Assembly: GCF_057098645.1 (NCBI RefSeq) | Contig: NZ_CM169472.1 | Reading direction: 5' to 3' (one strand) | Length of the DNA stretch: 64,000 nt | Shown here: piece after piece, positions 6,901 through 9,900 of the stretch | Numbering within the stretch: the first letter of the stretch is position 1 | Layout of the letters: every line of letters begins with the position of its first letter | Program-made: the position numbers

Positions 6901-9900
6901 AAAACTTTAAAACGTTATGCATTTGCTTTATTGGCGAAAGCTCATTCTTTAGATGAAAGTATGATAAGCAATCAAACTTTTAATACATACAAAACGGTAT
7001 TGCTTGATTTTAATAATCTGTCTAATGAAGAGGCCAACCAGTTGCGCATAAGTTCGTTATATCGTGATATGGTCCGCTACGCACAATATCGTTTTTCTAA
7101 AGTTTTATCCGAGTGGACGCCAGACGCATGGGTGTAAAGATCGCAGCAGAATAATGGCATTGATGGCCCTGGCTCAGGCCAGGGCGGGCAATACCGATTT
7201 CTGCGAAGCGATGACGGTGGCAAGTGTAACCACGAAATGCGGTATCACTTGCTGTTTTCTGCCCTGAAGACTGGCCTCACTGTGCCGTCGAACTTTCAAT
7301 CAAATATATTGCGAGAGGGCGTGTTTGCGAGCCGCTTTCCAGAAACAGAAAAACCATTACCCCTGAAAACCGAAAAATGCCACAATATTGGCTGTTTATA
7401 CAGTATTTCAGGTTTTCTCATGGCATTAACCGCCGCGCTTAAAGCGCAAATTGCCGCCTGGTATAAGGCGCTTCAGGAACAGATCCCCGACTTTATTCCC
7501 CGTGCGCCGCAGCGGCAGATGATTGCGGACGTCGCCAAAACGCTGGCCGGAGAAGAAGGGCGGCATCTGGCGATTGAAGCCCCCACTGGCGTTGGGAAAA
7601 CGCTCTCCTATTTGATTCCCGGCATCGCCATTGCCCGCGAAGAGCAAAAAACGCTGGTGGTGAGCACCGCCAACGTGGCATTGCAGGATCAGATCTACAG
7701 CAAAGATTTACCGCTGCTGAAAAAGATCATTCCCGATCTTAAATTCACTGCCGCTTTTGGGCGTGGGCGCTACGTTTGCCCGCGTAATCTGACGGCGCTT
7801 GCCAGCACTGAGCCCACGCAACAGGATCTGCTGGCGTTTCTTGACGACGAACTGACGCCAAATAATCAGGAAGAGCAAAAACGTTGTGCGAAGCTGAAGG
7901 GCGATCTCGACACTTATAAATGGGATGGTCTGCGCGATCATACGGATATCGCTATAGATGACGATCTCTGGCGTCGTTTAAGTACCGACAAAGCCAGTTG
8001 CCTCAACCGCAACTGTTACTACTATCGCGAATGCCCGTTTTTTGTTGCTCGTCGGGAGATTCAGGAAGCGGAAGTGGTGGTGGCAAACCATGCGCTGGTG
8101 ATGGCGGCGATGGAAAGCGAAGCGGTATTGCCTGACCCGAAAAATTTACTGCTGGTGCTGGACGAAGGCCATCACCTGCCAGATGTGGCGCGGGATGCGC
8201 TGGAGATGAGTGCCGAAATCACCGCGCCATGGTATCGGCTACAGCTGGACTTGTTCACGAAACTGGTCGCTACCTGCATGGAGCAGTTTCGACCGAAGAC
8301 CATCCCGCCGTTGGCGATCCCTGAACGTTTGAATGCGCATTGTGAAGAGCTGTATGTGCTTATCGCCTCATTAAACAACATTCTCAATCTCTACATGCCT
8401 GCCGGGCAGGAAGCAGAACACCGTTTTGCGATGGGCGAACTGCCTGATGAAGTGCTGGAGATCTGCCAGCGGCTGGCAAAACTCACCGAGATGCTGCGTG
8501 GTCTGGCGGAGTTATTTCTTAACGATTTAAGTGAGAAAACCGGCAGCCATGACATTGTACGTCTGCATCGGTTGATTTTGCAGATGAACCGCGCGTTGGG
8601 GATGTTCGAGGCGCAAAGCAAACTCTGGCGGCTGGCTTCGCTGGCGCAATCTTCCGGTGCACCGGTGACCAAATGGGCGACGCGGGAAGAGCGCGAAGGG
8701 CAGCTACACCTCTGGTTTCACTGCGTGGGAATACGTGTCAGCGATCAGCTGGAAAGGCTGCTGTGGCGCAGTATTCCGCACATTATTGTCACCTCCGCAA
8801 CCTTGCGTTCGCTGAACAGTTTTTCGCGTTTGCAGGAGATGAGCGGGCTGAAAGAGAAAGCGGGCGACCGTTTTGTGGCGCTGGATTCCCCCTTTAACCA
8901 CTGCGAACAGGGCAAAATTGTTATTCCCCGGATGCGCGTTGAGCCTTCCATCGACAACGAAGAACAGCATATTGCTGAAATGGCGGCCTTTTTCCGTGAG
9001 CAGGTGGAGAGCAAAAAACATCTCGGTATGTTGGTGCTGTTTGCCAGCGGGCGTGCGATGCAGCGCTTTCTCGACTATGTGACGGATTTACGTCTGATGT
9101 TGCTGGTGCAGGGCGATCAGCCGCGTTACCGTTTAGTTGAACTGCACCGCAAACGCGTCGCCAACGGTGAGCGTAGTGTGCTGGTGGGCTTACAGTCATT
9201 TGCCGAAGGGCTTGATTTGAAAGGTGATCTGCTCAGCCAGGTGCATATCCACAAAATCGCTTTTCCGCCCATCGACAGCCCGGTGGTGATCACCGAAGGG
9301 GAATGGCTGAAAAGCCTCAACCGCTATCCATTTGAGGTGCAAAGCCTGCCGAGCGCCTCGTTTAACCTGATTCAGCAGGTTGGGCGACTGATTCGAAGTC
9401 ACGGTTGCTGGGGCGAAGTGGTGATTTACGATAAACGCTTGCTGACCAAAAATTATGGCAAGCGACTACTGGATGCATTACCGGTATTTCCGATAGAGCA
9501 ACCGGAAGTCCCTGAAGGTATAGTTAAAAAGAAAGAAAAAACGAAATCCCCACGCCGTCGGCGGCGTTAATGATGTGAGTCAGGTAAGGAGTCGTAAATG
9601 GACTATCGCAAAATCATTAAAGAGATCGGGCGCGGGAAAAACCACGCGCGCGATTTAGACCGGGATACTGCGCGCGGTCTGTATGCCCATATGCTCAATG
9701 GTGAAGTCCCTGACCTTGAGTTGGGCGGTGTATTGATTGCGCTGCGTATCAAAGGGGAAGGGGAAGCAGAGATGCTCGGCTTTTACGAAGCCATGCAAAA
9801 TCACACCATCAAGCTGACGCCGCCTGCAGGCAAGCCGATGCCGATTGTCATCCCCAGTTACAACGGCGCGCGTAAACAGGCCAACCTTACGCCGTTGTTG

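Follow-up and report, generated by a model that had tools for sequence, protein, structure and literature searches.

A K-12-identical, asymmetric LexA operator very probably serves dinG beside an espX2 island in Escherichia coli

The window analysed here, i.e. a stretch of 64,000 nucleotides from contig NZ_CM169472.1 (assembly GCF_057098645.1), carries the gene of the ATP-dependent DNA helicase DinG on the plus strand at positions 7420–9570 (716 aa), as given by the ORF list and by the RefSeq annotation of near-identical genomes. Between the stop codon of rhlE at 3181 and a short module preceding dinG lies an island on the plus strand (3183–7324), delimited by Megablast against K-12, GC content and annotation. 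Its GC content is 0.30–0.40 compared with around 0.53 in the flanks, and according to Megablast it replaces a 737-bp K-12 segment carrying ybiA on the minus strand. The region thus sits at a conserved locus, is missing from K-12, has an atypical GC content and carries a virulence gene, i.e. espX2, a type III secretion effector according to the annotation of O145 RM9872, O157:H7 Sakai and CE10, all of which identifies the region as a horizontally acquired island; the annotation of the intact espX2 versions shows no integrase between rhlE and dinG. The junction of espX2 with dinG was found in 541 of the 5421 complete E. coli genomes.

In the window, espX2 is interrupted by an IS2 element on the minus strand (4473–5802; NCBIfam IS2 TnpB, 1e-219, and TnpA, 4e-83), the coordinates of which were set by comparison with the intact espX2 of RM9872. 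The element splits the gene into 3789–4472 and approximately 5803–7137 (ORFs listed at 3789–4649 and 5668–7137), with around 5–6 nt duplicated at its ends. This IS2 junction was found in none of 5426 complete genomes, and the insertion is a later, private one. In this O145:H28-like strain, the espX2 island replaced ybiA and left both the operator and the core promoter of dinG intact.

Homology with K-12 breaks at 7324/7325, i.e. 61 bp from the LexA box described below, 95 bp from the dinG ATG and at approximately -68 from the start site predicted by the extended -10 assignment. From 7325 to the ATG, the alignment with BW25113 is 100 % identical, while no similarity exists upstream of 7325. The dinG-proximal module (7325–7419, plus strand, 95 bp) was accordingly defined by alignment and Megablast, with its upstream end as the island junction. 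A first interpretation, made from the sequence alone (hereafter the sequence-only reading), had set the island boundary around 250 bp upstream, which corresponds to the ORF and GC boundary at the espX2 stop codon (7137) and misses the homology junction by approximately 185 bp. Its suggestion that the island changed the promoter context of dinG holds for the DNA upstream of 7325, which differs from K-12, the identity ending far short of 7140, but fails for the interval from 7325 to the ATG. Because they all lie downstream of 7325, the operator, both -10 candidates, the -35 candidate and the Shine-Dalgarno sequence are unchanged.

The 187 bp between espX2 and the junction (7138–7324, plus strand) form a non-coding 3' flank of espX2, which belongs to the island because the genomes that contain it, each in a single copy, are exactly the 541 with the espX2-dinG junction. 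This flank has a fold z-score of -2.85 and contains an 8-bp GC hairpin (7166–7185) lacking a T tract. It was considered as a repeat element or sRNA, and this was rejected, as it occurs once per genome, only together with espX2, and has no Rfam match. Scans of positions 7000–7500 predicted no intrinsic terminator between the espX2 stop codon and dinG and returned no Rfam family at E≤1.

LexA boxes follow the frame TACTG-(TA)5-CAGTA, and the LexA dimer needs CTG-N10-CAG. Upstream of dinG, the 20-mer TATTGGCTGTTTATACAGTA occupies positions 7386–7405 as read on the plus strand, in the context ccacaaTATTGGCTGTTTATACAGTAtttcaggttttctcATGgcatta, and was assigned as an asymmetric LexA (SOS) operator, without an orientation of its own, based on the weight matrix, K-12 identity and conservation across 80 species. 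The right half-site ATACAGTA (7398–7405) equals the consensus. In the left half-site TATTGGCT (7386–7393), TTG replaces CTG, and positions 6 and 7 are G and C instead of the usual T and A, leaving TTG-N10-CAG where the canonical trimer pair would stand. The sequence-only reading had described both halves in these terms, i.e. a canonical right and a degenerate left one, and was mistaken only about the distance to the ATG (7420–7422), which is 14 nt and not 15 nt. The CTG trimer is typical of gammaproteobacterial LexA boxes without strictly defining them, and dinG is accepted in the literature as a non-canonical member. A shifted palindrome, CTGT-N4-ACAG (7392–7403), was also considered as the pairing of half-sites and rejected, the spacing being wrong for a LexA dimer.

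To express the strength of the box, a symmetrised LexA weight matrix was built from 16 published boxes (PMC3009722, Table 4), with dinG left out. A matrix scan had been proposed by the sequence-only reading as a check on the box, and in it no other site of the 64-kb window reached the leave-one-out score of the dinG box, which was 12.82 bits. By the same matrix, the accepted polB box is comparable at 13.9 bits and most boxes score 17–28 bits. The heterology index (HI) of the dinG box was 8.94 in our own computation with 17 sites, compared with a published 8.6 (Courcelle 2001, tabulated in PMC11228462). With its degenerate half-site and a matrix score below that of most boxes, the dinG box is a weaker operator than those close to the consensus. 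Given that just one half-site is canonical, the site could in principle resemble half a LexA box by chance and have no function. However, in 300 dinucleotide-preserving shuffles of the window, sites scoring at least as high as the dinG box occurred at a mean of 0.22 per 64 kb, which corresponds to a chance expectation of approximately 3e-4 for a site of this grade per 100-bp upstream region, and a chance match is further refuted by the invariance of the site in 5401 of 5421 E. coli genomes and by its conservation in 80 species at a nearly fixed distance from the ATG. We therefore regard this explanation as exceedingly improbable.

Within E. coli, the 66 nt from 7360 to 7425 are identical in the 5401 genomes just mentioned, all counts referring to complete genomes. 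The operator region is thus near-invariant in the species and not a feature peculiar to this strain. For comparison across species, one genome per species was scanned with the first 300 aa of DinG, which yielded 80 loci spanning Escherichia, Citrobacter, Salmonella, Klebsiella, Enterobacter, Kluyvera, Kosakonia and other genera of the Enterobacteriaceae. The LexA box was present in all 80, at a distance to the ATG of 14 nt in 66 species, 13 nt in 12 and 15 nt in two, and 19 of its 20 positions were invariant or nearly so. The right half ATACAGTA was conserved in all species except for its final base (A in 68, G in 12). Immediately upstream of the box, a T and a G occur in 80/80 species, followed by a variable base and by CACAAT, the positions of which are conserved in 77–80 species. 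Homology between genera starts at 7372–7374 in most of them, the sequence further upstream being not conserved, and at 7324–7325 in Salmonella, Phytobacter and Citrobacter amalonaticus.

The remaining position of the box is position 3, i.e. the C of CTG in canonical boxes, which is G in 76 of the 80 species, T in three (E. coli, E. albertii and one Escherichia sp.) and A in E. whittamii. Since it is C in none of them, the asymmetry is ancestral to the Enterobacteriaceae. That the asymmetry is shared argues that the weak left half-site represents an ancestral and tolerated state, possibly a selected one.

The same 20-mer is the known dinG operator of K-12 (Lewis & Mount 1992, J Bacteriol 174:5110), with which the window shares the whole 95 bp to the ATG as well as the 14-nt distance; the two loci differ only upstream of 7325, where the espX2 island with its IS2 lies here and the divergent ybiA lies there. 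The claim of a non-canonical LexA box upstream of dinG was thus correct, down to the exact published sequence. In PMC8265657, which cites Lewis & Mount 1992, TATTGGCTGTTTATACAGTA is given as the asymmetric dinG operator of K-12 with TTG for CTG, a site characterised by experiment, and in-vitro binding of LexA to it is likewise attributed there to Lewis & Mount. The 20-mer is also among the LexA boxes upstream of UV-induced genes tabulated in PMC3009722. Among the genes under LexA control whose SOS box is known, standard lists include dinG, which is described as LexA-repressed, and two of the columns in a table of LexA-regulated genes give inductions of 3.2-fold and 1.7-fold for it (PMC11228462).

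In Salmonella enterica, the dinG SOS box (Cells 2021, PMC8072944) shares the position 14 nt from the start, the right half and the spacer, and the gene is SOS-induced, i.e. 10.6-fold by nalidixic acid; in contrast to E. coli, position 3 is G (TAGTGG...) and not T, and the HI is 10.08 compared with 8.6. Canonical boxes, such as those of recA, umuDC, sulA and recN, have in common with the dinG box the 20-bp frame, the right half-site and, for dinG by prediction, the placement over the promoter or start site of an SOS gene, whereas in the left half of dinG the invariant C of CTG is missing and positions 6–7 are G and C. A plasmid-borne box reported in PMC8265657 likewise has TTG as its left trimer and is explicitly compared there with the dinG box, but it is a putative one and its right trimer is non-canonical too. 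The dinG box is therefore an already known site that belongs to the textbook SOS regulon of E. coli, and it matters little as a discovery; the useful outputs are the corrections to the locus and its context.

Two candidate promoters overlap the LexA box. Conservation points to a predicted extended -10 element, TG-n-CACAAT, on the plus strand (7378–7386; TG at 7378–7379 and CACAAT at 7381–7386), the last T of which is the first base of the operator (7386). Such an element would put the transcription start at around 7392–7394, inside the left half-site, and would give a leader of around 27 nt that includes the Shine-Dalgarno-like AGG described below. A weak -35-like hexamer, TTACCC, is predicted on the same strand 18 nt upstream of CACAAT (7357–7362); it is not conserved between genera and lies under the threshold of the consensus promoter scan. 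The sequence would alternatively allow a plus-strand promoter at 7377–7404, composed of ATGCCA (7377–7382), a 16-nt spacer and TACAGT (7399–7404), which matches eight of the 12 consensus positions and has both hexamers conserved among the 80 species. Its -10 hexamer sits within the operator and, with a predicted start at around 7411, its leader would be only around 9 nt long. In 7000–7500, no sigma-70 promoter reached the threshold of the consensus scan, no TSS of dinG (b0799) is given in the supplementary TSS tables of Kim et al. 2012, and a literature search on the dinG promoter found no promoter detail.

Translation would be served by a Shine-Dalgarno-like AGG 7 nt before the ATG (7410–7412, plus strand), as read from the sequence, CAGG being conserved in most species. 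An in-frame ATG at 7237, opening an ORF of 777 aa, was considered as the start of an N-terminal extension of DinG and rejected, as no Shine-Dalgarno sequence precedes 7237 and the extension would run through the promoter and the operator; its 61 stop-free codons are unremarkable (approximately 5 % by chance).

The predicted overlap of box and promoter bears on how the conservation is to be read. The spacer GGCTGTTTAT is nearly invariant beyond what LexA needs, so that part of the constraint probably stems from an overlapping promoter or start-site function. Taken further, the conserved block could be mainly a promoter, i.e. extended -10, discriminator and start site, with the likeness to a LexA box adding little regulation, as would fit a box spacer that is near-invariant over 80 species without LexA requiring it, the conservation signature of an extended -10 carried by TG-n-CACAAT, and the small induction ratios of 1.7–3.2-fold in E. 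coli. Against this stand the perfect right half, conserved in 80/80 species apart from its final base, and the SOS induction of dinG in both E. coli and Salmonella. Moreover, the published work is titled as a study of LexA-operator interaction, the site is cited as experimentally characterised in PMC8265657, and papers citing the work report a LexA footprint and derepression in lexA(Def) for K-12. A block with little role for LexA is thus very unlikely.

We conclude instead, with high confidence, that the box represents dinG's native SOS operator, in which a consensus half-site (ACAGTA) is paired with a degenerate one, that it is identical to that of K-12, and that the island left both operator and core promoter untouched. 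For this conclusion, sequence identity, motif score, conservation and breakpoints were computed, while LexA binding and SOS induction are taken from the literature on K-12 and Salmonella. RNA polymerase would probably use TG-n-CACAAT together with the poor -35 TTACCC. With either candidate promoter, a LexA dimer bound to 7386–7405 would cover the start site or the -10 element and occlude RNA polymerase. Upon DNA damage, self-cleavage of LexA stimulated by RecA would then free the promoter, and dinG would be modestly induced. The weak left half-site would lower the affinity for LexA, in agreement with the mid-range HI and the modest induction in E. coli (1.7–3.2-fold).

Replacement of the DNA upstream of dinG is common, and the gap between rhlE and dinG is hypervariable in E. 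coli. Besides espX2 in 541 genomes, it holds a K-12-type ybiA in 3429. A divergent NADAR-family allele breaks at the window-equivalent position 7306, a RelE/ParE toxin-antitoxin pair at around 7321, and the end of a prophage, carrying tail-fibre and invertase genes, abuts the equivalent of 7361, which falls within the candidate -35 at a distance of 59 bp from the ATG. Many other genera have no gene in the gap, rhlE ending around 95–100 bp before dinG. The part which is always kept comprises approximately 50–60 bp with TG-n-CACAAT and the box. Since this core is retained despite unrelated DNA upstream of 7372 or 7361, the upstream context appears dispensable. The corrected junction and the invariance of the operator under a hypervariable gap could guide comparisons of the SOS response between EHEC and K-12. 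In strain TUM13064, an ISEc53 unit with a clbS-like gene lies inside the dinG operator, with the target duplication CTGTTTAT.

The island could nevertheless have rewired dinG, possible routes being read-through from the co-directional espX2, a lost interplay with the divergent promoter or H-NS spreading from the AT-rich DNA. In favour of this, just 61 bp separate the junction from the operator, the stretch from the espX2 stop codon to dinG has no predicted intrinsic terminator, and the K-12 start of ybiA falls inside the retained module, so that the divergent promoter has lost its gene here. On the other hand, the operator, the -10, the candidate -35 and the Shine-Dalgarno sequence are all identical to K-12, other genera and E. 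coli lineages keep the same core under unrelated DNA from 7372 or 7361 upstream, and read-through would be limited by the hairpin at 7166–7185 and by the IS2 inserted in the opposite orientation in espX2. On balance, such rewiring is unlikely, and an unchanged native operator is the preferred explanation.

The divergent promoter itself can be placed on the window. The supplementary table of Kim et al. 2012 lists the ybiA TSS of K-12 at 832239 on the minus strand, with two reads and an upstream 51-mer, which is the reverse complement of the operator region. Mapped by sequence identity, the equivalent start lies at 7366 on the minus strand and marks a candidate orphan divergent promoter, with the LexA box over approximately -40 to -21. 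While ybiA is absent here, its promoter and 42 nt of its leader are retained and point into the espX2 flank. A literature search for EspX2 with dinG found nothing relevant. In the espX2 lineages (O157:H7, O55:H7, O145:H28 and others), the orphan promoter might thus fire antisense into the espX2 flank, with the co-directional espX2 lying upstream of dinG and lacking a canonical terminator, so that dinG and/or an anti-espX2 transcript would be regulated unlike in K-12. We consider this quite unlikely. If true, it would mean, for example, LexA-independent read-through into dinG or an SOS-inducible antisense RNA against a virulence effector.

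In E. coli strain TUM13064, a unit of ISEc53 (ISL3-family) bearing a ClbS/DfsB-like gene sits within the operator (positions 1100-1120 and 2995-3015 of its dinG locus) with an 8 bp target duplication, CTGTTTAT, and owing to this unit around 1.9 kb now lies between dinG and its -10 and left half-site. At least one further genome has a match ending inside the LexA box, i.e. H80 (accession number NZ_OZ547226.1), where the match takes in just bases 1-40 of the 66-base query (window 7360-7425) and stops at approximately window 7399; this record contains two places matching the query. 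In E. coli strain SF-088, the end of a prophage adjoins dinG (2420-2560 of that locus), with genes for a tail fibre, tail fibre assembly and a recombinase/invertase. Since homology to K-12 starts there just 59 bp ahead of the dinG ATG (equivalent to window 7361), the -35 region of dinG may contain a phage attachment site.

Outside Escherichia, rhlE ends around 95-100 bp 5' of dinG in many genera, i.e. Enterobacter, Kluyvera, Lelliottia and the Citrobacter freundii group, and these share a T-rich tract, TTTTCTTTTTGCG(A/G)C, about 60-100 nt 5' of the dinG ATG (dinG loci L008-L083), which is possibly the tail of the rhlE terminator. The -35-like hexamer TTGCGA, 17 nt from the CACAAT of the predicted extended -10, comes from this tract. 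At this position, the sequence of the Escherichia/Salmonella type is unrelated.

Despite the deletion of ybiA, the window keeps the position corresponding to the ybiA start of transcription that was mapped in K-12, together with the first 42 nt of the leader (window 7366 to 7325, minus strand). The LexA box (7386-7405) lies over the upstream portion of this K-12-equivalent, divergent ybiA promoter.

The dinG frame remains open for 61 codons 5' of its ATG (window 7237-7419). Read from an upstream ATG at 7237, which lies in island DNA, the ORF is 777 aa long. No Shine-Dalgarno sequence lies ahead of this upstream ATG, and the upstream open frame is therefore probably meaningless; in CE10, a hypothetical protein of 92 aa is annotated in the corresponding interval. 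The 3' flank of espX2 (window 7138-7324) is more stably folded than its shuffles (z = -2.85) and includes a perfect 8-bp GC hairpin (7166-7185); the hairpin has no T tract and the flank no Rfam match.

The type III effector gene espX2 (3789-7137) is itself split by an IS2 (window 4473-5802) inserted in the opposite orientation. This junction is absent from all 5426 complete E. coli genomes, whereas elsewhere the region matches that of the O145 strain RM9872 at 99.9-100 % identity.

The LexA matrix gave other matches in the window. One of 12.2 bits, TACTGGATGCATTACCGGTA (9467-9486), lies in the 3'-terminal part of dinG, with ybiB some 110 bp further on, and its right trimer is CGG, not CAG. A further candidate site, GCCTGTGTTAGTTTCCAGTA (30328-30347; 12.1 bits, third in the window), has the full CTG-N10-CAG and overlaps the GTG start (30332) of ybiT, encoding an ABC-F ATPase.
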